A stretch of 64,000 nt of DNA from Verrucomicrobiia bacterium (GTDB taxonomy: Bacteria; Verrucomicrobiota; Verrucomicrobiia; Limisphaerales; UBA11358): the NCBI GenBank assembly GCA_025451535.1, contig JANWKE010000082.1, positions 14,884 through 78,883 on the forward strand. Reading direction: 5' to 3'. The position numbers were made by a program, and so were the translations under genes. Under the pieces are notes generated by a model, which saw only the letters and a program-made list of their open reading frames with translations, was not told the origin of the DNA and made no database searches. Each line of letters starts with the position of its first letter. Position 1 is the first letter of the stretch. This document shows, piece by piece, positions 1-8,055 of the stretch.

Positions 1-321
1 ATCACCATCGTGACGCTCATGTTCGCGCTGGCCGGCGTAATGCGTAATGCAGCGGCAGCGAACGCGGGTGATCTTGACGGTCTTTTGCTCAAAATCCCGG
101 CGCTTTCGAGCATATACGAAGACTGGTTCCGCGCTGACACCTACTGGCGCGACGATACGCGGACGATCTATGTGCAGCGGATTCCTCAAGTCATCCGGGA
201 ACTTGCCGATGAAATGACGGCGGCCAAGGGAGCAAAGTTGGTGCAGCAATATCGGTATGCCCCCATATTCGGGGAACTTTACAAACCGATGCCGTTGCAA
301 CAGGAACAGCGAACAACTTGA
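1..321 (+). CDS. 3' end of an ORF truncated by the window edge; product unknown
   Basis: Frame 1 is open from base 1 to TGA at 319-321 (same frame as track ORF 10..321). It is co-oriented with and directly upstream of the ParA-like gene. No motif recognised. Confidence 0.4.
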   Translation: MTIVTLMFALAGVMRNAAAANAGDLDGLLLKIPALSSIYEDWFRADTYWRDDTRTIYVQRIPQVIRELADEMTAAKGAKLVQQYRYAPIFGELYKPMPLQQEQRTT

Positions 322-449
322 AATTGGTTATGAGTGGCCGAAAAGCTTCTTACGGTGACCGACTGGAAATTGCTACCGAATTCGATGCTGACAGCAAGCA
401 ATTCCCCGTCGTCAAGCTCGAACATCCGTAACCCAAACGAACTAAGATC

Positions 450-1502
450 ATGCACAAGACAATTGCATTATTCAATCACAAGGGCGGGGTTAGCAAAACT
501 ACAACTACGTTTAACCTCGGCTGGATGTTGGCTGAGAAAGGCCACCGCGTGGTGATGATAGATACTGATCCACAATGTAATCTCACTGGCTTGGTGTTGG
601 ACTATGACACTTCGCAGGAATTTGATGCTTTCTATTCTCAGCACCCGAACGCGAATCTCAGGACAGCGTTAGCCCCTGCGTTTGAATCACAACCGAAGCC
701 CATTGAAACAGTGGAGTGTGTTGAAGTCAGAGACCGGCCGGGGTTATTCCTTGTTCCTGGTCACGTGAACTTGAGTGAATATGAGGTCACGTTAGGAATC
801 GCGCAAGAACTGTCCGGTTCACTCCAGGCGCTTAAAAATCTTCCAGGAGCGTTTCATTTCTTTGTTGAAAAAGTTGCGACTGCAAACACTGCCGACTACG
901 TACTTGTCGACATGAGCCCGAGCCTTGGTGCGATGAATCAGAACTTCTTGATGACAAGCGACTGCTTTTTGGTGCCAACGGCCCCCGATTACTTCAGCGT
1001 GATGGCAATAGATTCGCTTGCATCTATTCTCCCAAAATGGATCGAGTGGGCGAAGAAGGCCGCAGAAGCTGAAACGCTCAAGTCGGCAAGTTACCCTTTT
1101 CCCAAGCCTGGTTTGAAATTCCTTGGCACAGTCATTCAACGATATCGCCCGAGAAAAGGGAAAGCCGCGGCAGGATTTCAGACTTGGATTGACCAAATCA
1201 ATGCGAGAGTCAGAGATCGTTTTGTGCCTGCATTAACAAGATACGGCGGCACATTCTTGCCGGCGACCTATAAAGCGGCTGGCATTGATCCCCAAGCTGG
1301 CTATTGTCTTGCCGAGATTGCTGACTTCAATTCTCTCATTACGGCGTCACAAAACCACCAGACTCCAGTCTTCGCACTTACAGAAACCATGCTTGGCCAT
1401 GTTGGCACGGTGTTGACTCAAGATATTGAGAATCGCGACAGATTTAGAAAGACTTTCGACGAATTGGCCGACCGAGTAGTCGCACTGTCTAAACATGCGT
1501 AG
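450..1502 (+). CDS. ParA/Soj-family P-loop ATPase with a C-terminal extension (350 aa)
   Basis: Deviant Walker A FNHKGGVSKTTTTFNLG, DTDPQCNLT, and VLVDMSPSLG...FLVPTAPDYFS. ATG at 450. The stop TAG at 1500-1502 overlaps the next start. Many A/T-ending and rare codons (TTA, AGA, ATA), unlike the flanking chromosome. Confidence 0.85.
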   Translation: MHKTIALFNHKGGVSKTTTTFNLGWMLAEKGHRVVMIDTDPQCNLTGLVLDYDTSQEFDAFYSQHPNANLRTALAPAFESQPKPIETVECVEVRDRPGLFLVPGHVNLSEYEVTLGIAQELSGSLQALKNLPGAFHFFVEKVATANTADYVLVDMSPSLGAMNQNFLMTSDCFLVPTAPDYFSVMAIDSLASILPKWIEWAKKAAEAETLKSASYPFPKPGLKFLGTVIQRYRPRKGKAAAGFQTWIDQINARVRDRFVPALTRYGGTFLPATYKAAGIDPQAGYCLAEIADFNSLITASQNHQTPVFALTETMLGHVGTVLTQDIENRDRFRKTFDELADRVVALSKHA

Positions 1503-2097
1503 CGCTCTGCAACAGTTTCAAGAAAACCTGTTAAGGGCACGCGAACTGGGCAACTTGGCTGTAGCCGTAACGCAGATAGCCACTTCTGCGATAGATGTCA
1601 GCGACATGTGGCGGGCACAGATCGTCCTGGGGGTGAGCGCGCTCGACCATTTGATTCACGAAATGGCGCGGCTTGGCATGATCGAGTGCGCCGAAGGAAC
1701 AAGGCCCAAGACCGACGCTTTCTCTAAATTTCAACTGCCAATCCACGCGGTTGAACGCGGTTTTAGTGGCCAAGCACATGAACAGTGGCTGGGTGAGGCC
1801 GTGCGCGAAAAGCATTCGTGGTTAAGTTTTCAGCATCCTGACAAGCTCGCTGACGCGATTCGGCTCATTTCCCCAGTGAAGCTCTGGGAAGAAGTTAGCA
1901 AGGAATTAGCATTGCCAGCGAAAGACGTAAAGGTTCGCCTCCAACTGATTGTTGAACGAAGGAATAAGATAGCACACGAGGCTGACATGGATCCAACCAA
2001 TCCGGGGTTTCGTTGGCCCATAAACGGCGCTCTAGCTCAGGACACTCTCGACTTTCTTGACAAAATTGCGCAAGCGGTCTTTAAAGTAGCTTCCTGA
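1495..2097 (+). CDS. HEPN-superfamily-like protein (RNxxxH motif), 200 aa, predicted all-helical
   Basis: ERRNKIAHE contains R156-N-K-I-A-H161 (Rx4H with the typical polar N after R) near the C-terminus (nt 1960-1977). The start shares an 8-nt overlap, ATGCGTAG, with the ParA-like gene. The family assignment is an inference, not a search result. Confidence 0.55.
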   Translation: MRSALQQFQENLLRARELGNLAVAVTQIATSAIDVSDMWRAQIVLGVSALDHLIHEMARLGMIECAEGTRPKTDAFSKFQLPIHAVERGFSGQAHEQWLGEAVREKHSWLSFQHPDKLADAIRLISPVKLWEEVSKELALPAKDVKVRLQLIVERRNKIAHEADMDPTNPGFRWPINGALAQDTLDFLDKIAQAVFKVAS

Positions 2098-2119
2098 ACA
2101 AACCAAATAAGCGGTCCGT

Positions 2120-5100
2120 ATGCCTATCGTTCACGATCAGCTTTCGGAACAGTTCTACCGCTGGGAACAGCGCGGACGCGGCTGGCGGGTATATGGCGAG
2201 TCAGTGTATCCTGAACCACCATTCGCTCCATTTGATGGCCATTATCAGCCGGAAGTGCGGGCCATTGACGACGGACGCAGGCCGACGCTTTTAAGCTCGC
2301 TGTTTCGCAAATTGGTCGGCAGCCGACCAGAGGGCACGCCAGCGGCACCTGAACCTGAAGAAGAACCGCAACCGACGCCGCTTGTTCGCGAATCGTCGGT
2401 TGAATTTCAGGCTTCCCTGCCGGAGAAACTCGACGTTGCACAAGAAGCGTTCGAGCAGTTCCTTTTGAATCTATCCTTATGCCGCGAACCTATCTCCTTT
2501 GAATTGCTCGGTATCCACAAGAAGGTGACGGCTCAATTTGCCGCCGCTTCAAGCGATGCCCCGCTGTTGCGCCGCCAGTTGCAGGCGTTCTTTCCCGAAG
2601 CGGTGTTCGTTCCGCATGGTGGCGCGTTGGAAAAGGCATGGGAAAAATCAGAGGGCGACGAGGTGCTGGCGGTGGAATTCGGCCTTGGCCGTGAATTCAT
2701 GCTGCCGCTTCAAAGCGGCAAGATTGATCCGTTCATCGGCATCGTCAGTGCTTTGTCTGAATTGCAGTGTGGCGAGCTTGGCCTGTTTCAAGTCCTCTGG
2801 CAGCCGGTGCAGAACCGCTGGGCCGAAAGCATCATCGCCTCCGTAACGCACGAAGACGGCAAGCCGTTTTTCGCCAACCAGCCCGAATTGACCAGCGCAG
2901 CAGAGGACAAAATCGCAAGTCCCCTGTTTGCCTCCGTGGTGCGTATCCTCGTTCGTGCCGGTGACTTTGAACGGCTATTGCAACTGGGCCGTGACATGGC
3001 CGGTTCATTGCGCGTGTTTACCCATCCGAACGGTAACGAACTCATCCCGCTTCAAAACGACGACTACCCTTTTGAAGAACACATCGGAGACGTGTTACGG
3101 AGACAATCGCGACGGACAGGTATGTTGCTCAACGCCGACGAGCTCATCGGCTTTGTTCATTTACCTGGCAGCGCCGTACGTTCGCCGGTCTTTACGCGGC
3201 AGACTGGCAAGACCAAATCAGCACCGGCGATTGTGCGACAGAGCCAAGGTCTGTTGCTGGGCACCAACGAGCACGCTGGAGAGACCGTTGAAGTGCGGTT
3301 GTCCGCCGAACAGCGCGTGCGTCATTGCCACATCATAGGAGCAAGTGGCACCGGCAAGAGCACGCTGCTTTTCAACCTAATAAAGCAGGACATTGATAAC
3401 GGTGAGGGCGTGGCCGTGCTCGATCCGCACGGCGATTTAATTGACCGGATTTTGGGTGTCATTCCGCCGGAGCGGATTGGCGACGTGGTTTTGGTTGACC
3501 CGGCCGACGAGCAGTATTCGGTTGGGTTCAACATCCTGTCGGCCCACAGCGAGCTTGAGAAGAATTTGCTGGCCTCTGACCTGGTAGCCGTGTTCCAGCG
3601 GTTGAGCACATCGTGGGGGGATCAAATGAACAGCGTTTTGCAGAACGCCATCCTTGCGTTTCTGGAAAGCGACCGACGCGGCACGATTGCCGATCTGCAA
3701 CGCTTCTTGATTGAACCGGCCTTTCGAAATGAATTCCTGAAATCCGTCCGCGATTCCCAGGTGGTGTATTACTGGCAGAAGAGCTTTTCGCATCTCTCCG
3801 GCGGCAAATCTATCGGCTCGATTTTGACCCGGCTGGATGGGTTCCTTTCCAAGAAGCCCATCCGTTACATGGTCTCGCAGCCGGAGAACCGGCTGGATTT
3901 CGCGCATATCATGGACAGCGGCAAAATCTTTCTGGCCAAGCTGCCGGAGGGACTATTGGGCCGGGAAAATTCGCATCTTTTGGGCACGGTGCTGGTGTCG
4001 AAGTTCCAGCAGATTGCCATGAGCCGGCAGGCGCAGCAGGTGGCCGCCCGCAGGGACTATTGGATTTATGCCGATGAGTTCGCCAATTTCATCACGCCGA
4101 GCATGGCGGAGATATTGTCCGGCGCGCGAAAGTATCGCATTGGGCTCACGCTGGCGCACCACGAATTGCAGCAATTGCAGCGCAGCCCGGAAGTAGCGAG
4201 CGCTGTCTTGACGCATCCTTGCACACGGATCGTGTTTCGGGTCGGCGATGACGACGCAAAAAAGCTGGCCGAGGGTTTTTCCTTCTTTGAAGCTAAGGAT
4301 CTGCGGAATCTGGAAACCGGGCAGGCGCTGTGCCGGGTTGAACGCAGTGATTTTGATTTCAACCTGACTGTCCCGCTTCCCGCCGAGCCGGACGCAGGTG
4401 CGACGGCGGCGAGGCGGCAGGAAGTGATTACGTGTTCGGTAAAGAAATACGGCACGGCTCGAGCGGACATTGAGGCGATGCTGGCAAAGTCAAGGACACC
4501 ACCGGAGGGACCGCTGCCTTCCCCACCGACAGAACCAGTCAAGCCGAAGCCGCCAACGCCCCTGGCCCCCGTGGCACCGGTTGTTTCAGAACCGCCGCAG
4601 GCTGCGGAAGCGCCGAAAGTTGTCGAAGTTCCGAAAGCTACGGGTTCGGAAAAGAATATCGCCGAGCCACCGCGCGATTTAGGCCGGGGAGGGGCGCAGC
4701 ACACAACCATTCAGCAGCGAATCCAGACCGAAGCTCGCGTCCTTGGATTCATGTCCGAAGTGGAACGGAAATTGACGGACAAGTCTATGCAAGCCGCTGA
4801 CTTGATCTTGCGCAAAGGCGACCTCGCCATAGCCGTGGAAATCGGCGTTACCACCACTACCGACCATGAATTCGGCAACGTGAAGAAGTGCTTGGCGGCG
4901 GGATATACCCGTGTCGCCGTCATATCCCCAGGTAGAGAGCGTCTAAAGGCGATTGCGGAGGCGGTTCAGGCCGGGCTTGGTTCGGAAGCGACAGCCAAGG
5001 TCAGCTATCACACACCGGATGATTTCATTGCCGAGCTTCGGAAACTGGCGCCGAAAATCAAGAACCAGGCTCTGCCGCAGACTCCCGGTGAGCGCATGAC

Positions 5101-5212
5101 GCTCGGATACAAAGTCCGCACGCATGGCCCGGCGCTTTCCCTGGACGAGCAGAAGGCCAAAGAGGAAATCGCGGTCAAGATGATGGCCGAGGCCATGAAA
5201 CGGAAATCATGA
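2120..5212 (+). CDS. Large HerA/FtsK/TraD(T4CP)-like P-loop NTPase (1030 aa) with an unknown N-terminal domain, a Pro-rich linker and a C-terminal PD-(D/E)xK-like domain
   Basis: Walker A HIIGASGTGKSTLLFN (nt about 3338-3364), VLDPHGDL, Walker B-like WIYADEFANF, and KYRIGLTLAHHELQQL. No N-terminal TM segments. Linker PPEGPLPSPPTEPVKPKPPTPLAPVAPVVSEPPQAAEAP. C-terminal GGAQHTTIQQRIQTEARVLGFMSEVE...AADLIL...AIAVEIGVT...NVKKCLAAGY. Confidence 0.7.
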   Translation: MPIVHDQLSEQFYRWEQRGRGWRVYGESVYPEPPFAPFDGHYQPEVRAIDDGRRPTLLSSLFRKLVGSRPEGTPAAPEPEEEPQPTPLVRESSVEFQASLPEKLDVAQEAFEQFLLNLSLCREPISFELLGIHKKVTAQFAAASSDAPLLRRQLQAFFPEAVFVPHGGALEKAWEKSEGDEVLAVEFGLGREFMLPLQSGKIDPFIGIVSALSELQCGELGLFQVLWQPVQNRWAESIIASVTHEDGKPFFANQPELTSAAEDKIASPLFASVVRILVRAGDFERLLQLGRDMAGSLRVFTHPNGNELIPLQNDDYPFEEHIGDVLRRQSRRTGMLLNADELIGFVHLPGSAVRSPVFTRQTGKTKSAPAIVRQSQGLLLGTNEHAGETVEVRLSAEQRVRHCHIIGASGTGKSTLLFNLIKQDIDNGEGVAVLDPHGDLIDRILGVIPPERIGDVVLVDPADEQYSVGFNILSAHSELEKNLLASDLVAVFQRLSTSWGDQMNSVLQNAILAFLESDRRGTIADLQRFLIEPAFRNEFLKSVRDSQVVYYWQKSFSHLSGGKSIGSILTRLDGFLSKKPIRYMVSQPENRLDFAHIMDSGKIFLAKLPEGLLGRENSHLLGTVLVSKFQQIAMSRQAQQVAARRDYWIYADEFANFITPSMAEILSGARKYRIGLTLAHHELQQLQRSPEVASAVLTHPCTRIVFRVGDDDAKKLAEGFSFFEAKDLRNLETGQALCRVERSDFDFNLTVPLPAEPDAGATAARRQEVITCSVKKYGTARADIEAMLAKSRTPPEGPLPSPPTEPVKPKPPTPLAPVAPVVSEPPQAAEAPKVVEVPKATGSEKNIAEPPRDLGRGGAQHTTIQQRIQTEARVLGFMSEVERKLTDKSMQAADLILRKGDLAIAVEIGVTTTTDHEFGNVKKCLAAGYTRVAVISPGRERLKAIAEAVQAGLGSEATAKVSYHTPDDFIAELRKLAPKIKNQALPQTPGERMTLGYKVRTHGPALSLDEQKAKEEIAVKMMAEAMKRKS

Positions 5213-5461
5213 TCATGTCCGGCTTTGGAGGATATACACCGGCCCGGTGACGCGATACGGCGAACAGCTTTCGATGATGCGGATGCGCAGCTTGGTCAGG
5301 CTTTGTTCGGGGGTTTCCTCGGCTAGTTGCACAGAAGGCCGGGCGACTCCGAGCTTCCGGGCGATTTCGGCCTTGGTCATGCCCGACTTGATGCGGAAAT
5401 GCTTGGCCATCGCAGCCAATTCGCTTTCGACAACGATGTCACGTTTCGACATGGTTGGCAT
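5213..5461 (-). CDS. XRE-family helix-turn-helix transcriptional regulator (82 aa)
   Basis: GMTKAEIARKLGVARPSVQLAE is a typical HTH_3 core. It is divergent from the recombinase gene. Its stop abuts the stop of the 1030-aa gene with zero spacer. Confidence 0.75.
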   Translation of the reverse strand: MPTMSKRDIVVESELAAMAKHFRIKSGMTKAEIARKLGVARPSVQLAEETPEQSLTKLRIRIIESCSPYRVTGPVYILQSRT

Positions 5462-5534
5462 GGTGAAAGAAAGTTAGGTAAAGAGCAAACTTTTATCTTG
5501 AACTGGTTTTGTATTTTTGATATGAACTCGTGGT

Positions 5535-7025
5535 ATGAAGGAAAATAGTGCCTTGAACAAACCGGTTGGCATCTGGATTCGGGTTTCGACCGAGGACCAG
5601 GCGAAGGGCGAAAGCCCGGAACACCACGAGGAACGCGCCAGGAGCTACGCCAAGAGCAAGGGCTGGCAGGTCAAGGAGGTCTATGACTTGGCCGGGCAGA
5701 CCGGCAAGGCCGTCATGCAGCACCCGGAGGCCAAACGCATGATGAAGGACATCGAACGCGGACACATCACCGGCTTGGTATTCTCCAAATTGGCCCGCCT
5801 GTCCCGCAACCGGCGCGAACTGGAGGACTTCTCAGACTTCTTCAACAAGCATCATGCCGACCTTATTTCACTCTCCGAAGCCATTGACACCAGCACTGCC
5901 GGAGGCCGGATGTTCTTTCATCTCTTGGGTGTATTTGCCCAATGGGAACGCGAGGAGATCACCGAGCGCGTCAATGCCTCCGTATTGACCCGCGCCAAAC
6001 TCGGCAAATCCATCAATGGCACTTCCCCGTACGGCTATGTCTGGAAAGACCGCAAATTGATCGTCCGGCCGGAGGAAGCTGCTGTGCGGCGCAAAGCCTA
6101 CGAACTGTTTCTGCAGTTCCGGCGAAAGGGGCAGGTCGCCCAGCATTTAAACGCCGCCGGATACCGCACCCGCAATGGGAACATCTGGCGGGACACCTCG
6201 ATTCTGCGCCTCTTGAACGAATCCAGCGCCAAAGGCGTGTATGTGTTCAATACCATGCGCTTGACCGGGACATGGCGCACCGAAACGAAGCCCGAAAGCG
6301 AATGGGGCCGGGCCGAATGCCCGCCCATCGTTTCCGAAGAACTATGGAATCAGGTGAACCAGATCATTGAGGAACAGTTGAAGTCATGGAAAAAGCCCGG
6401 CAAACCGCCCGTTCACCTGTTCAGCGGCTTAGCCCATTGTTCGTGCGGCCACAGGATGTATGTTGCCGCCAACAGCCCGAAATACTTCTGCCGCAAATGC
6501 CGCAACAAGATACCCATCACCGACCTTGAGAACATCGCCAGAAATGAGCTAAAAGTCTTTTTCGGTGAGCCCAAGCGGATAGCTGGCCATCTGCGGCAAG
6601 CTGACCGCAATCTGGCCGAGAAATCCGCCTTGCTCGACGCCCACAGGCGGGAGATGCAGAAGGTCAAAGAGGATATGCACCATACGCATCAGTTGTATTT
6701 GAAACATCAGATTTCCGGCGATGGTTTCCGCGACCTCTTCACGCCCGCCGAGGAACGGATGAAGCAGTTGCAGGCCGAACTGCCCAGGCTGGAAGCCGAT
6801 GTGGATTTCCTTAAAGTCAACAAGCTGTCCACCGATGACGTGCTTCACGAAGCCGCCACGCTCCATGACCGCTGGCCGAAATTGCCGTTTGACGACAAGC
6901 GAAAAGTCGTCGAAGCCCTCATCGAAAAGATCGTCATCGGCAACGGTGAAATAGACATAACCTTCTCGCACCTGCCATCTTCTGAAGAACTATGCAAAAA
7001 CCAGCAGAGGTTAGGGCCGGGGTGA
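5535..7025 (+). CDS. Large serine recombinase (resolvase/invertase N-domain + recombinase domain + zinc ribbon + coiled coil)
   Basis: VGIWIRVSTEDQ (catalytic Ser), GLVFSKLARLSRN, GGRMFFHLLGVFAQWEREEITERV, YGY...G, CSCGHRMY...FCRKCRNK, and a long C-terminal coiled coil. Confidence 0.9.
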   Translation: MKENSALNKPVGIWIRVSTEDQAKGESPEHHEERARSYAKSKGWQVKEVYDLAGQTGKAVMQHPEAKRMMKDIERGHITGLVFSKLARLSRNRRELEDFSDFFNKHHADLISLSEAIDTSTAGGRMFFHLLGVFAQWEREEITERVNASVLTRAKLGKSINGTSPYGYVWKDRKLIVRPEEAAVRRKAYELFLQFRRKGQVAQHLNAAGYRTRNGNIWRDTSILRLLNESSAKGVYVFNTMRLTGTWRTETKPESEWGRAECPPIVSEELWNQVNQIIEEQLKSWKKPGKPPVHLFSGLAHCSCGHRMYVAANSPKYFCRKCRNKIPITDLENIARNELKVFFGEPKRIAGHLRQADRNLAEKSALLDAHRREMQKVKEDMHHTHQLYLKHQISGDGFRDLFTPAEERMKQLQAELPRLEADVDFLKVNKLSTDDVLHEAATLHDRWPKLPFDDKRKVVEALIEKIVIGNGEIDITFSHLPSSEELCKNQQRLGPG

Positions 7026-7072
7026 GGACGGTCGTTCAAACCATTCTTGTTTTCGGATTGACGACTGACTAC

Positions 7073-7972
7073 TTAAAATCTCGTCAGCTTTTCCAGTTCC
7101 TTCACGCGCCGATCGATTTGGGCAAGTTTGGTTTTGGTGGTGCGCGTCAGGCCGAAACCTTCGCAGCAGAACGACGCGGTGACGCTGCCGTAAATCATCG
7201 CGCGCCGGAGATTATCCTCAATCGAACCCTTCGCCGCCGCGAGCCGGCCCATCATGCCGCCCACGAACGAATCGCCTGCGCCGGTCGGGTCCACGACCTT
7301 GGACAGCGGGTACGCCGGACAGATGAAATAGCCGCGTGGACCGGACAAAATCGAGCCGTGCGAGCCTTTTTTGATGATGACGTATTTCGGCCCCAGCTTG
7401 TGGATTTTCTTCAGCGCGGTGAAGAGGTTGTCCTCTTTGGTCAACTGGTGCGCCTCGCTGTCGTTGAGCACGAAGCCGTCAAGGCGCTTGAGCAGCTTCA
7501 GCAAGTCCGGCAGCGCGATGTTCAGCCACAAATCCATCGTGTCGGCCACGACGAATTTCGGGCGGCGCATCTGGTCGAGCACGTGACTCTGGAGCGCGGG
7601 CGCGATGTTCGCCAGCAGGACGAATTGGGAGTCCCGGTGCGGTTCCGGCAGTGTGGGCGTGAAGGTCTCGAACACGCCGAGCTCGGTCAGCAGTGTGCGC
7701 CGGTTGTTCATGTTCACCTCGTATTCACCGGACCAATGGAAAGTTTTGCCGGGAAGAATCTGCAGACCTTCGAGGTCAATTTTGTGCCGGCGATAAAGCT
7801 CGAGGTATTTTTTGGGGAAATCCTCGCCGACCACGCCGACCAGTTTTACCGGGCTGAAAAAGCTCGCGGCGACGGCGGCGTGGCTGGCCGAGCCGCCCAG
7901 CAGCCGCGGGTTCTCGGCCCTGGGTGTTTTGATGGAATCCAGCGCGGTGGAACCGACGATGAGAACGCTCAT
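7073..7972 (-). CDS. PfkB-family carbohydrate/nucleoside kinase
   Basis: MSVLIVGSTALD..., LLGGSASHAA, and DPTGAGDSFVGGMMG (ribokinase-family signature). The start was chosen at the internal ATG (7972) because the longer ORF runs into a repeat element. Confidence 0.85.
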   Translation of the reverse strand: MSVLIVGSTALDSIKTPRAENPRLLGGSASHAAVAASFFSPVKLVGVVGEDFPKKYLELYRRHKIDLEGLQILPGKTFHWSGEYEVNMNNRRTLLTELGVFETFTPTLPEPHRDSQFVLLANIAPALQSHVLDQMRRPKFVVADTMDLWLNIALPDLLKLLKRLDGFVLNDSEAHQLTKEDNLFTALKKIHKLGPKYVIIKKGSHGSILSGPRGYFICPAYPLSKVVDPTGAGDSFVGGMMGRLAAAKGSIEDNLRRAMIYGSVTASFCCEGFGLTRTTKTKLAQIDRRVKELEKLTRF

Positions 7973-7986
7973 GTTATTTTGTGAAT

Positions 7987-8055
7987 TGTAGCGGCGCTCA
8001 GTGAGCGCCGGTAATTTATTTTTACGAACTGCGACGATCATAGACCGCCGCTACA
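7987..8055. repeat. 69-bp miniature element with a perfect 10-bp inverted terminus (GTAGCGSC-terminus family)
   Basis: TGTAGCGGCG (7987-7996) / CGCCGCTACA (8046-8055). Inner hairpin GGCGCTC-agt-GAGCGCC. 8038-8055 TCATAGACCGCCGCTACA matches 47781-47798 at 17/18 nt. Confidence 0.7.

Follow-up and report, generated by a model that had tools for sequence, protein, structure and literature searches.

What a 1030-aa protein that joins a coupling-protein-type ATPase to a nuclease-like domain does for the DNA that encodes it is the question raised by a gene in a 64,000-nucleotide window from a Verrucomicrobiia bacterium. The open reading frame (ORF) lies at 2120..5212 (+), stop included, and consists of an ATG start, 1030 codons in all, and a stop. 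A word-indexed search returned 4223 homologues, the best 120 of which are full-length at ~70% identity, and when 1.84 billion cluster representatives were searched exhaustively, 19,525 matched at E<=1e-3, 4,832 of them at E<=1e-30. The full-length representatives listed in the latter search mostly align along almost the entire query, at identities as low as 39%. Because homologues are this numerous, the ORF is confirmed as a real gene, far beyond chance. No transmembrane (TM) helix was predicted anywhere in the protein in 19-residue Kyte-Doolittle windows (maximum 1.32), and its placement in the coupling-protein (TrwB/VirD4) branch of the FtsK-HerA ATPases, although it lacks TM helices, is well supported. 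The protein very probably has four parts: a DUF8128 N-domain that in its predicted fold resembles the N-terminal domain of VirB4, an ATPase core of the coupling-protein (T4CP) type, a Pro-rich tether of ~65 residues, and a PD-(D/E)xK domain. A first-pass annotation, made from the sequence alone, had read the same gene and drawn a domain map; the gene is real and the boundaries stand.

The core (residues 391-787; 3290..4480, +) is supported by sequence profiles as a T4CP/HerA-superfamily NTPase of the coupling-protein (TrwB/VirD4) type, as first proposed. Pfam assigns it to TrwB_AAD_bind (PF10412) at 4e-10 and to DUF87, and a profile search against the PDB matched TrwB (1.3e-8) and DotL (8e-8), as well as DptH of DndFGH and HerA. 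Alignment to R388 TrwB by hhalign gave 95% probability and an E-value of 2.9e-8 over 255 columns, pairing query residues 398-692 with TrwB 114-391. The best PADLOC match is mad8 (3.4e-16), which is confined to the core, and HerA models match too. Walker A reads GASGTGKS (residues 407-414; 3338..3361, +) and Walker B reads WIYADE (residues 648-653; 4061..4078, +). G407, G410, G412, and K413, together with D652 and E653 of the YADEF motif, are invariant in 73 sequences. Between the two motifs lies a conserved helical insert (residues ~470-600), recognized at the sequence level and falling inside the range aligned to TrwB; it is a candidate counterpart of the all-alpha domain that T4CPs carry within the nucleotide-binding domain. 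In characterised T4CPs, this kind of ATPase core forms hexamers.

The core is followed by a flexible Pro/Ala/Val/Glu-rich tether (residues 788-852; 4481..4675, +), which bears out the low-complexity linker described earlier. Residues 786-852 contain 28% Pro, 13% Ala, and 10% Val; the segment is gap-rich and unconserved in 138 representatives, and its C-terminal end is modelled with a pLDDT of ~61. The C-domain that it carries (residues 853-1030; 4676..5209, +) is confidently predicted to adopt a PD-(D/E)xK nuclease fold, as the first-pass annotation had suggested in calling it a restriction-endonuclease-fold domain. The AF2 model has a pLDDT of 88.3, with elements H14-30, E34-37, E51-55, E58-64, H70-82, and E87-91, and its 40 best Foldseek matches in the PDB are all PD-(D/E)xK nucleases. 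These are led by R2 RLE (2e-4), EcoT38I, Bax1, Can2, BspD6I, AF1548, PspGI, PaqCI, and Hjc, the R2 RLE and Hjc entries being 9nl2 (2e-4), 8gh6 (7e-4), and 4tkd (Hjc), while the BFVD matches are endonuclease-, VRR-NUC-, or Mrr-like. The possibility that the C-domain is a MOB_C relaxase (Replic_Relax) was rejected: hhalign against the Replic_Relax proteins of the elements themselves and of Bacillus gave 0.2-0.5% probability, no wHTH was found ahead of the C-domain, and the Pfam Replic_Relax family gave no match at E<=10 among 46 members.

The putative active-site segment spans residues 858-927 (4691..4900, +), as judged from conservation and secondary structure. In this placement, helix 1 carries H861 and Q865, E882 follows strand 1, D894 opens strand 2, E907 lies within strand 3, and helix 2 carries E917, N920, and K923; these residues are conserved in 91-99% of the 138 representatives. 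All of the motif strings quoted previously are present (SEVE 879-882, AADLIL 892-897, AIAVEIGVT 903-911, and NVKK 920-923), with the correction that the helix-1 spacing is H-x2-I-x3-I (H861-T-T-I864-x3-I868), not H-x3-I. That account had also described a CoiA/NERD-like variant without the classic Lys. The canonical Lys at the +2 position of strand 3 is indeed replaced, by Gly909; the domain is better described, however, as a predicted R2-RLE/Hjc-like variant in which a candidate catalytic Lys, K923 (96% conserved in the 138 representatives), lies on helix 2.

The replacement of the (D/E)xK Lys by Gly909 raises the possibility that the nuclease fold serves only in DNA binding or oligomerisation, leaving a plain accessory coupling ATPase without cleavage. 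Inactive PD-(D/E)xK domains used for DNA binding exist, and no sequence-level match to any characterised nuclease family was found for the C-domain in Pfam or the PDB, with Pfam giving none even at E<=10 for 46 members. Such an inactive domain is nevertheless very unlikely. H861, E882, D894, E907, E917, N920, and K923 are kept in 93-99% of the 138 representatives, which share just 39-66% identity overall, the kind of pattern usually shown by a working active site that depends on metal. The acidic residues stand out in particular: D894 and E907 are found in 99% of these representatives and are invariant in sets of 73 and 46 sequences, and E882 and E917, with H861, are invariant in the 73. With the predicted fold, this conservation passes the first of the checks that the first-pass annotation had set for its nuclease reading. 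Moreover, the same non-canonical layout, with His at the start of helix 1 and Lys on helix 2, is catalytically active and mutationally validated in the R2Bm endonuclease (PMC4838377).

The N-domain (residues 1-390; 2120..3289, +) had been regarded as free of recognizable motifs, which proved incorrect. It corresponds to Pfam DUF8128 (precomputed PF26449) and consists of a conserved N-terminal helix and strand (residues 4-29), a disordered acidic/Pro loop (~40-90) that contains the PEPEEEPQP stretch reported earlier (residues 77-85), and tandem ferredoxin-like alpha/beta units. The AF2 model (pLDDT 85, pTM 0.83) matched full-length R388 TrwK/VirB4 chains in Foldseek with a probability of 1.0 and E-values of 1.7e-4 to 1e-3, with an overlay of 354-402 aligned columns that reaches a TMq of only 0.36-0.40 at an rmsd of ~8 A. 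Isolated P-loop structures (TrwB, HerA, and the VirB4 C-terminal domain) were absent among these matches, so the region matched is the part of VirB4 outside the ATPase. Neither an hhalign signal to TrwK within the N-domain nor a Pfam CagE_TrbE_VirB match was found; the hhalign match to R388 TrwK (16% probability) covers the P-loop segment only. The modelled N-domain may thus be said to resemble the VirB4 N-terminal domain at the fold level only (TM ~0.4). In VirB4, this is the inner-membrane and VirB3-binding domain of the type IV secretion system (T4SS). In addition, residues 125-390 share homology with the N-terminal region of a DUF87 ATPase from a Bacillus plasmid, whose gene adjoins that of a MOB_C relaxase. 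Through these VirB4-type fold matches and the Bacillus plasmid homology, the idea that the N-domain is a known relaxase- or T4SS-interaction domain, one of the two outcomes that the first-pass annotation had named as counting against it, is partly upheld.

A small, usually membrane-anchored protein is encoded immediately upstream of the ATPase gene in ~31 of 33 loci, and the two genes form a two-gene module. The window begins inside this partner gene, of which the last ~106 codons, from inside TM helix 2, are present at 1..321 (+); the product shares 42-55% identity with the 235-269-aa upstream proteins of three related loci, L001, L004, and L005 (BLASTP/tblastn). A 2-TM hairpin is seen in the partner proteins of relatives, and the soluble domains are the conserved parts. 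The partner has no match in Pfam, NCBIfam, or the PDB and no homology to VirB3; one member matched TrbD at an E-value of 0.067, which is not significant. The description of the 1030-aa protein as soluble is therefore correct as to its own lack of TM helices and is qualified by its usually membrane-anchored partner. In the window, a two-gene cassette separates the two: a ParA/Soj-type ATPase gene (450..1502, +; 350 aa; Pfam AAA_31 4.6e-30 and CbiA) and a HEPN-like gene (1495..2097, +; 200 aa; Pfam HEPN_RiboL-PSP at an E-value of 3.2e-4, short of the gathering score), the first 8 nt of which overlap the end of the ParA gene. By tblastn, no comparable ParA gene was found at the same position in other loci and the HEPN-like gene had no match in any other locus; GC is 0.488 in the ParA gene vs 0.574 in the ATPase gene. 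The pair is an insertion between the partner and ATPase genes that lies outside the conserved module.

Downstream of the ATPase gene are a small gene encoding an 82-aa HTH protein (5213..5461, -; weak Pfam HTH_31/HTH_3) and a large serine recombinase gene (5535..7025, +; 496 aa; Pfam Resolvase 3.8e-29, Recombinase 4.4e-18). The HTH protein, a candidate regulator or directionality factor, is 44-56% identical to the products of 78-aa genes in the same position in most close-relative loci, and 74% in one (L035). The recombinase marks the right end of an integrated element: host genes begin at 7073 and include FtsY (SRP54), PHP, and fucosidase genes by Pfam, with a pfkB-type kinase, a glyoxalase, and NusB read from translations. 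Among 26 loci that carry a recombinase of the same cluster, most likewise have its gene right after that of the ATPase. Partner, ATPase, (HTH), and serine recombinase genes follow one another in this order in Verrucomicrobiota, Acidobacteriota, Chloroflexota, Bacteroidota, Sumerlaeota, and one Parcubacteria (candidate phyla radiation) MAG. In Gemmatimonadota, the partner-ATPase pair recurs, a small ATPase, the partner, and the big ATPase being encoded in one tight gene row, and the stretches retrieved there showed no recombinase gene. In relatives, the elements additionally encode a MOB_C (Replic_Relax) relaxase, a DnaG-type primase, ArdC, RadC, and a 480-aa paralogous T4CP-like ATPase (33% identity, E 1e-60), whose gene is adjacent to that of the relaxase. 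Neither mating-pore genes nor VirB6/8/9/10-type or other T4SS genes were found in the complete element of L001. The gene for the 1030-aa protein thus belongs to the backbone of a widespread family of serine-recombinase integrative mobilizable elements that crosses phyla, a status that the earlier sequence-only reading had missed.

The near-constant adjacency of the ATPase gene to the serine recombinase and small HTH genes would suit a role, together with the recombinase, in maintaining the excised circle, through replication, dimer or junction resolution, or segregation, with the Hjc-like nuclease cutting branched DNA. SCC-type elements, which encode a helicase next to the ccr recombinases, offer a parallel. 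The C-domain also comes close, in its predicted fold, to the Holliday-junction resolvases Hjc/Hje, the same elements encode the DnaG-type primase, and their relaxase belongs to the "replication-relaxation" Pfam family. Yet a membrane-anchored partner is unexpected for a replication or resolution enzyme, T4CP-type motors are not known to act as replicative helicases, and adjacency to the recombinase may simply reflect two backbone genes at the element end. Such a function is considered improbable, even though related translocation operons adjoin recombinases in temperate Bacillus phages (Pathria et al.; PMC3357382).

The explanation preferred here, held tentatively at a little under an even chance, is that the protein is a membrane-docked motor-nuclease acting in the transfer or establishment of the element itself. 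By analogy with VirB3-VirB4, the small partner would bring the ring of ATPase subunits to the inner membrane by way of the N-domain. The ring, possibly acting together with the 480-aa paralogue, would then thread the DNA of the excised element towards a helper conjugation channel, and six tethered nuclease domains would nick or cut the DNA being threaded. Translocation may thus reasonably be supposed to be coupled to cleavage, as first suggested, and this coupling would operate during the element's own transfer or establishment. If so, the protein probably cleaves DNA and drives its movement at the cell membrane while the element is spreading. This explanation is favored by the predicted domains, the membrane partner, the recurrent partner-ATPase-(HTH)-recombinase order with variable cargo outside the pair, the co-resident MOB_C relaxase, 480-aa paralogue, primase, ArdC, and RadC, the tight gene row in Gemmatimonadota, the plasmid homologue in a coupling-protein position, and the phage translocation-operon homologues. 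Against it, a T4CP-like ATPase already lies beside the relaxase, and a second is not obviously needed for transfer; the likeness to the VirB4 N-terminal domain is at the fold level only and the partner is not a VirB3 homologue; and the conserved parts of the partner are its soluble domains, with no clear TM segment in some distant members.

ATPase-nuclease pairings are, furthermore, typical of defence systems, and the best PADLOC match of the protein is a defence ATPase, mad8. The main rival to a role in transfer is accordingly one in exclusion or defence, in which the membrane-docked motor would capture incoming phage, plasmid, or competing-element DNA, reel it in, and degrade it with the tethered nuclease, protecting element and host in the manner of HerA-nuclease defence complexes. 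A translocase paired with a PD-(D/E)xK nuclease follows the logic of HerA-NurA and of the HerA-DUF4297 defence complex (PMC11291478). Besides the mad8 and HerA matches of PADLOC and the profile match to DptH, the gene adjoins a cargo/defence hotspot, which holds TCAD9/HD, SymE, TIR, and an RM methylase, QatB/KAP, or SMODS/ThiF CBASS-like genes in relatives and to which the ParA and HEPN-like pair in this window may be added, and membrane anchoring would place the protein at the site of DNA entry. However, defence cargo is normally patchy and mobile between sites, whereas the partner-ATPase pair, outside which the variable cargo lies, keeps a single place beside the recombinase and accompanies it across identities ranging from 40% up to about 82%. 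The closest relatives with a characterised context sit in coupling-protein positions next to relaxases, no self/non-self component (methylase or sensor) is conserved with the pair, and no other mad genes were found with Pfam or PADLOC. Defence is for these reasons judged less likely than transfer, though likelier than circle maintenance.

Comparison with known systems places the protein between several machines. It shares the ATPase superfamily with the HerA-nuclease machines (HerA-NurA, HerA-DUF4297, Sir2-HerA, DptH of DndFGH, and mad8 of MADS), as well as the idea of pairing a ring-shaped translocase with a nuclease, as in end resection by HerA-NurA. Unlike their nucleases, which are separate subunits, its own is fused in cis by a long tether. 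It is not HerA proper: the Pfam and PADLOC DUF87/HerA matches are confined to the P-loop segment, no HerA structure, and thus no HAS-barrel N-domain, appears among the Foldseek matches of the N-domain, and no NurA, Sir2, or DUF4297 partner genes were found nearby with Pfam or PADLOC. MADS, in which a mad8-type ATPase belongs to an eight-gene mad operon, was likewise rejected, as the mad8 match covers the ATPase core only and the neighbours match no other mad gene or methylase.

The best structural matches of the C-domain are R2 RLE and archaeal Hjc/Hje, and with R2 RLE it shares the motif order of a helix-1 His, a Glu after strand 1, a strand-2 Asp, a strand-3 acidic residue, and a helix-2 Lys (PMC4838377). 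Identity to R2 RLE/Hjc is only 13-18%, with no detectable sequence-level relationship, and at its C-terminal end the C-domain carries additional alpha/beta elements, a beta-hairpin, and a terminal helix. Unlike R2 RLE, it has no CCHC zinc knuckle and is joined to an ATPase, not to a reverse transcriptase. As for VirB4, full-length TrwK chains are the only ATPases that the N-domain model matches in Foldseek, and a small 2-TM-hairpin protein is encoded immediately upstream, as in VirB3-VirB4 (TrwM-TrwK), although the partner is not homologous to VirB3. The motor, in contrast, is T4CP-like and not VirB4-like, with no match to the Tcp-type TcpF/VirB4-like ATPase and no VirB4 chain in the PDB profile search.

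Closer relatives are the Bacillus DUF87 "coupling" ATPases, namely a 913-aa B. subtilis plasmid protein (NZ_OX419581) encoded beside a MOB_C relaxase and the phage proteins SPO1 gp27.4, 0305phi8-36 ORF201, and phage G gp156. By hhalign, the plasmid protein aligns with query residues 125-781 (probability 99.8, E 1.7e-30), a true homology over the N-domain (from ~125) and the ATPase core, and its gene occupies the coupling-protein position directly upstream of the MOB_C relaxase and Tcp-type T4SS genes. In tblastn (E 1e-9 to 5e-25), the phage proteins match about residues 240-730, which take in the last part of the N-domain and the ATPase core. SPO1 gp27.4 and 0305phi8-36 ORF201, whose matches cover about residues 250-720, are "DNA translocation operon" ATPases (PMC3357382). 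Like the 1030-aa protein, these ATPases are associated with MOB_C relaxases of the PD-(D/E)xK type and, where the phages are temperate, with recombinases (PMC3357382; PMC12857230). Identity of these plasmid and phage ATPases to the 1030-aa protein is, on the other hand, just 20-25%, and their function is likewise putative. The plasmid protein matches neither residues 1-124 nor the nuclease C-domain, its alignment stopping at 781, the phage matches end near residue 730, and no homologue of the small partner was detected in these systems.

The T4CPs themselves (TrwB of R388, VirD4, TraD, and DotL) differ from the 1030-aa protein in three respects. Their N-terminal TM domain is replaced in it by a globular N-domain of 390 aa and a membrane partner encoded by its own gene, it bears a C-terminal nuclease domain, and its gene is not beside the relaxase, a position held by the 480-aa paralogue. 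It is like them in possessing a homologous P-loop motor, with an alignment to TrwB that runs through the region of the helical insert between Walker A and B, and in being encoded on a conjugation-related mobile element.

The large ATPase encoded in the window runs from an ATG start through 1030 codons (2120..5212, forward strand) and belongs to a large, cross-phylum and uncharacterised family of new architecture, in which a VirB4-like N-domain, a motor of the type IV coupling protein (T4CP) kind, a tether and a predicted R2-like nuclease occupy a single chain, with a separate membrane adaptor. A word-indexed search returned 4223 homologues, the best 120 of these 4223 being full-length at about 70% identity, and 19,525 of 1.84 billion cluster representatives matched in an exhaustive HMMER search with a threshold of E<=1e-3, a number that falls to 4,832 (clusters at 50% identity) with E<=1e-30. 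Most of the full-length representatives listed align over nearly the whole protein, down to 39% identity. Given these counts and the near-full-length alignments, the ORF is not a chance reading frame. Public annotation of the family is limited to [quoted passage not shown] or "hypothetical". No full-length relatives occur among 72,556 plasmids. Since IMG/VR scans yielded no close relative and one distant full-length relative, the reading as a phage gene was rejected. A promoter and terminator scan of window positions 1..7200 was uninformative, as its counts did not rise above those of shuffled sequence.

The ATPase core carries the Walker A motif GASGTGKS (407-414) and a Walker B motif with D652/E653, and the T4CP/HerA-like NTPase described in the first-pass annotation is matched by Pfam (TrwB_AAD_bind, 4e-10, plus DUF87), by a profile search of the PDB and by hhalign. 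Further matches come from NCBIfam (VirD4-, TraD- and CedD-like, all sub-threshold) and from PADLOC (mad8, the ATPase of the MADS defence system, 3.4e-16, plus HerA). Against PDB sequences, a 73-sequence family profile places TrwB, the T4CP of R388 (1.3e-8), and DotL (8e-8) at the top, followed by DptH and HerA, and VirB4 is absent among its matches. With hhalign, the same profile aligns to R388 TrwB at 95% probability (E 2.9e-8) over 255 columns, from Walker A to beyond Walker B, whereas the alignment to R388 VirB4 (TrwK) reaches only 16% and is confined to the P-loop. Based on the ranking of TrwB and DotL and on the 95% vs 16% result, the motor is assigned by sequence to the coupling-protein branch of the FtsK-HerA superfamily. 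An identity as VirB4 was rejected on the sequence comparison with TrwK and with the VirB4-like ATPase of a Bacillus subtilis plasmid, which has no match to the large ATPase. Identity as MADS mad8 or as a HerA defence component was also rejected, as the matches are limited to the ATPase core and the partner genes of those systems are absent.

The N-domain (residues 1-390) had been described as having no recognisable motif, a description that no longer holds, as precomputed annotation assigns it to Pfam PF26449 (DUF8128); a Pfam scan of the protein itself does not return this family, and a full-text search found no literature on DUF8128. Sequence searches of Pfam and the PDB gave nothing significant, and when residues 1-390 were used as the query by themselves, all occurrences of the domain were in fragments or members of the large ATPase family. 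In the AlphaFold2 model (pLDDT 85, pTM 0.83), a short helix and strand, both conserved, form the N-terminus and are followed by a disordered acidic and proline-rich loop at about 40-90, which includes the previously noted PEPEEEPQP (77-85), and by tandem ferredoxin-like units. Foldseek matches to this model form two groups. The first (TMq about 0.26) consists of sheet-rich domains from BBE-type oxidases, Cas6 and chlorite dismutase, while the second, with the longest alignments, comprises twelve R388 TrwK/VirB4 chains (354-402 columns, TMq 0.36-0.40, E 1.7e-4 to 1e-3). Because no isolated P-loop structure (TrwB, HerA or the VirB4 C-terminal domain) is among the matches, the likeness is to the N-terminal half of VirB4, and as judged from the predicted structure it is at the level of fold only. 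In type IV secretion systems, this half of VirB4 binds VirB3 and the inner-membrane complex.

Relatives in known contexts extend across both the N-domain and the motor. With hhalign, residues 125-781, which span most of the N-domain together with the motor, are homologous to a 913-aa DUF87 protein of the B. subtilis plasmid (probability 99.8, E 1.7e-30), whose gene lies directly upstream of a replication-relaxation (MOB_C) relaxase and Tcp-type conjugation genes. A tblastn search recovers SPO1 gp27.4, 0305phi8-36 ORF201 and phage G gp156 over about residues 250-720. These proteins are described as the "coupling ATPases" of phage "DNA translocation operons" and are encoded beside MobC-like relaxases (PMC3357382).

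Following a tether of 28% proline (about residues 786-852), which is present as first described, the C-domain contains H861, SEVE (879-882), AADLIL (892-897), AIAVEIGVT (903-911) and NVKK (920-923), all of them strings read earlier from the translation. The C-domain found no match in Pfam, in a phmmer search of the PDB or in a profile search against the PDB, and Pfam scans of C-domains from 46 family members were empty. The AlphaFold2 model of residues 845-1030, built from 46 sequences, has a mean pLDDT of 88.3 and the order helix, strand, strand, strand, helix, strand. All 40 of its 40 best Foldseek matches in the PDB are PD-(D/E)xK nucleases, including the R2 retrotransposon endonuclease (2e-4, 7e-4), EcoT38I, Bax1, Can2, R.BspD6I, AF1548, PspGI, PaqCI and Hjc, and a viral structure library returned endonuclease, VRR-NUC and Mrr-like proteins. 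Among 138 representatives with only 39-66% identity to the large ATPase, conservation reaches 91-99% at eight putative active-site residues. Helix 1 carries H861 and Q865, E882 directly follows strand 1, strand 2 begins with D894, strand 3 contains E907, and helix 2 carries E917, N920 and K923. The canonical Lys position of (D/E)xK is occupied by Gly909. In the R2Bm endonuclease, mutagenesis has defined a His at the start of helix 1, a Glu after strand 1, an Asp, an acidic residue and a catalytic Lys on helix 2 (PMC4838377), the same non-canonical layout as in the C-domain. The C-domain is predicted to have a PD-(D/E)xK fold but belongs to no described family. The nuclease suggested by the first-pass annotation is supported by this modelled fold and the conserved acidic residues, although its "CoiA/NERD-like" label is better replaced by "R2-RLE/Hjc-like". 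That the C-domain is catalytically dead and serves to bind DNA is highly improbable, as the near-invariance of active-site-type residues speaks against it.

MOB_C relaxases are themselves PD-(D/E)xK enzymes (PMC12857230; PMC5357655), and fusion of a captured relaxase domain seemed plausible given the ancestral gene order of ATPase then relaxase. However, hhalign gave only 0.2-0.5% against the relaxases of the elements themselves and one Bacillus Replic_Relax protein, the plasmid collection contributed a single Replic_Relax sequence towards a better profile, and no Replic_Relax match appeared in the Pfam scans of 46 C-domains. At the sequence level this origin is not supported, and only a generic motif order is shared.

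The large ATPase has no predicted membrane helix, as was first proposed, with a maximum Kyte-Doolittle value of 1.32 in 19-residue windows. In about 31 of the 33 loci that contain its 5' end (42 loci fetched from genomes and metagenomes), the gene immediately upstream encodes a small partner protein. The loci surveyed come from Verrucomicrobiota, Acidobacteriota, Chloroflexota, Gemmatimonadota, Bacteroidota, Sumerlaeota, one Parcubacteria (candidate phyla radiation) MAG and others. The soluble N- and C-terminal parts of the partner are conserved, while its membrane element varies: close relatives have a central hairpin of two TM helices, and distant members have either a single TM helix at the N-terminus or no more than an amphipathic segment. 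Profile searches of Pfam, NCBIfam and the PDB gave no match. In some close relatives, a further small and strongly hydrophobic protein lies just upstream of the partner gene (L001 8720-9253 (+), 177 aa, identified by hydropathy; L005 8914-9258 (+), a 114-aa homologue, 38% identity; L numbers denote fetched loci). It is not widely conserved and may be an additional membrane component.

In the window, ORF 1..321 is the C-terminal end of the partner. Between it and the large ATPase gene, two genes overlapping by 8 nt are inserted (450-2097, forward strand), the first for a 350-aa ParA/Soj-type ATPase and the second for a 200-aa HEPN-like protein (RiboL-PSP, with an E of 3e-4 that is below threshold). 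Their GC contents are 0.49 and 0.52, against 0.57 for the large ATPase gene, and the pair was not found at this position in the other fetched loci. The pair may be a cassette of the toxin or defence type that inserted into the operon. A different 373-aa ORF occupies the same junction in L013 (8777-9898 (+)), so the junction may be a recurrent site of cargo insertion.

Downstream, a small HTH gene (5213-5461, reverse strand) directly follows the large ATPase gene and precedes a large serine recombinase (5535-7025, forward strand). Beyond this lie host housekeeping genes for FtsY, PHP and fucosidase (Pfam) and for a pfkB-type kinase, glyoxalase and NusB (read from translations). The window therefore holds the right end of an integrated element, the left part of which precedes the first position of the window. 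The whole element, as seen in homologues on long contigs, is about 14 kb long and is ordered as a 480-aa TM-less T4CP-like ATPase, a MOB_C (Replic_Relax) relaxase, a DnaG-type primase, ArdC and RadC, variable cargo, the partner (160-270 aa), the ATPase of about 1030 aa, the HTH gene and the serine recombinase. The 480-aa ATPase is a paralogue of the large ATPase core (33% identity, E 1e-60), and in three Gemmatimonadota loci it forms one tight row with the partner and the large ATPase. As no mating-pore genes occur in the whole elements on long contigs, these are taken to be integrative mobilizable elements. A serine recombinase is downstream of the large ATPase in most loci. That the ATPase works with this recombinase to replicate or resolve the excised circle is improbable.

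A ComM/Mg-chelatase-like gene adjoins the recombinase gene or overlaps with it in at least seven loci (L001 15956-17032; L007 14819-15895; L012, L019, L021, L033, L036), and integration thus appears to favour comM. In the window, the element occupies a different site, beside a pfkB-type kinase gene (7073-8041, reverse strand; 322 aa), which is the likelier real gene; the antisense 330-aa ORF (6992-7984, forward strand), with no family match, is probably spurious. In L035 (9830-12556 (+)), a 908-aa hybrid is 76% identical to the small ATPase in its N-terminal third and 68% identical to residues 378-1029 of the large ATPase in the rest, which looks like a deletion by recombination between the paralogues with loss of relaxase, primase, ArdC and partner gene. 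Some genomes hold two copies of the ATPase gene or element (L023 and L033 on one Chitinophagaceae contig; L008 and L017 in one Acidiferrales MAG; the homologues P0009 and P0028, each with a longest contig of 511,988 bp, possibly share a contig), so the elements appear not to exclude each other strictly. Copies of about 70% identity in MAGs of very different phyla (L011 and others; Limnocylindrales, Acidiferrales, Victivallales, "Bifidobacteriaceae") indicate recent cross-phylum transfer, though mis-binning is common for mobile elements and may explain some of the assignments. Cargo beside the module is rich in defence-type genes, namely SMODS and ThiF (CBASS-like), TCAD9 and HD, and QatB and a KAP NTPase (L026 4292-6891 (-); L028 7894-8817 (-); L005 4676-7672 (+); L006 609-3310 (-)).

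The computed results establish the arrangement of domains, the conservation of ATPase and nuclease-type residues, the backbone place of the gene in an integrative element related to conjugation, and the obligate small partner; the mechanism is inferred from them. By analogy with T4CPs, the large ATPase may assemble as a ring. The partner would attach this ring to the membrane by way of the VirB4-like N-domain, and the tethered nuclease domains would nick or cut DNA while the ring threads it. The tentatively favoured role is in transfer or establishment of the element itself, because the nearest relatives in known contexts hold coupling-protein positions beside MOB_C relaxases, because the gene, unlike cargo, keeps a fixed backbone position together with the recombinase, and because it is operonic with the small T4CP paralogue in some phyla. 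The main rival, in which the protein serves exclusion or defence by degrading DNA as it enters at the membrane, is rather unlikely, although translocase-nuclease logic is typical of defence (HerA-NurA, HerA-DUF4297, DptH, mad8) and the gene borders the defence-rich cargo region. A more speculative version of the transfer role, and a doubtful one, is a self-contained "cut-and-pump" conjugation enzyme that combines a coupling-type motor with a built-in endonuclease and a docking domain resembling that of VirB4. Together with the partner, this enzyme would enable a 14-kb element to use unrelated helper secretion systems in many phyla, the element's DNA being processed without, or in parallel to, a classical covalent relaxase; such an enzyme could also be a surviving VirB4/T4CP intermediate.

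To our knowledge, known coupling proteins carry no nuclease, and the fusion and its ubiquity would surprise a specialist in conjugation or defence. MOB_C relaxases form no detectable covalent intermediate, and the hand-over of their DNA to the channel is still to be explained (PMC12857230). A motor that does couple translocation with cleavage at the membrane would represent a type of DNA-processing enzyme new to conjugation. The large ATPase could also account for the persistence of about 70% protein identity in a small mobilizable element found in Verrucomicrobiota, Acidobacteriota, Chloroflexota and others. Should the protein instead act in defence or exclusion, its union of translocase and nuclease in a single chain, served by a membrane adaptor, would make it an effector of a new kind. 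A VirB4-like N-domain on a T4CP-like motor also bears on the divergence of the two conjugation ATPases.

Compared with known systems, the large ATPase resembles T4CPs in its motor, but has a predicted built-in nuclease and is missing their N-terminal TM anchor. By sequence it is not a member of VirB4, which it resembles only in the fold of the N-domain. It also lacks the HAS barrel of HerA and is thus not a HerA. The DUF87 protein of the B. subtilis plasmid is homologous over both the N-domain (from residue 125) and the motor.
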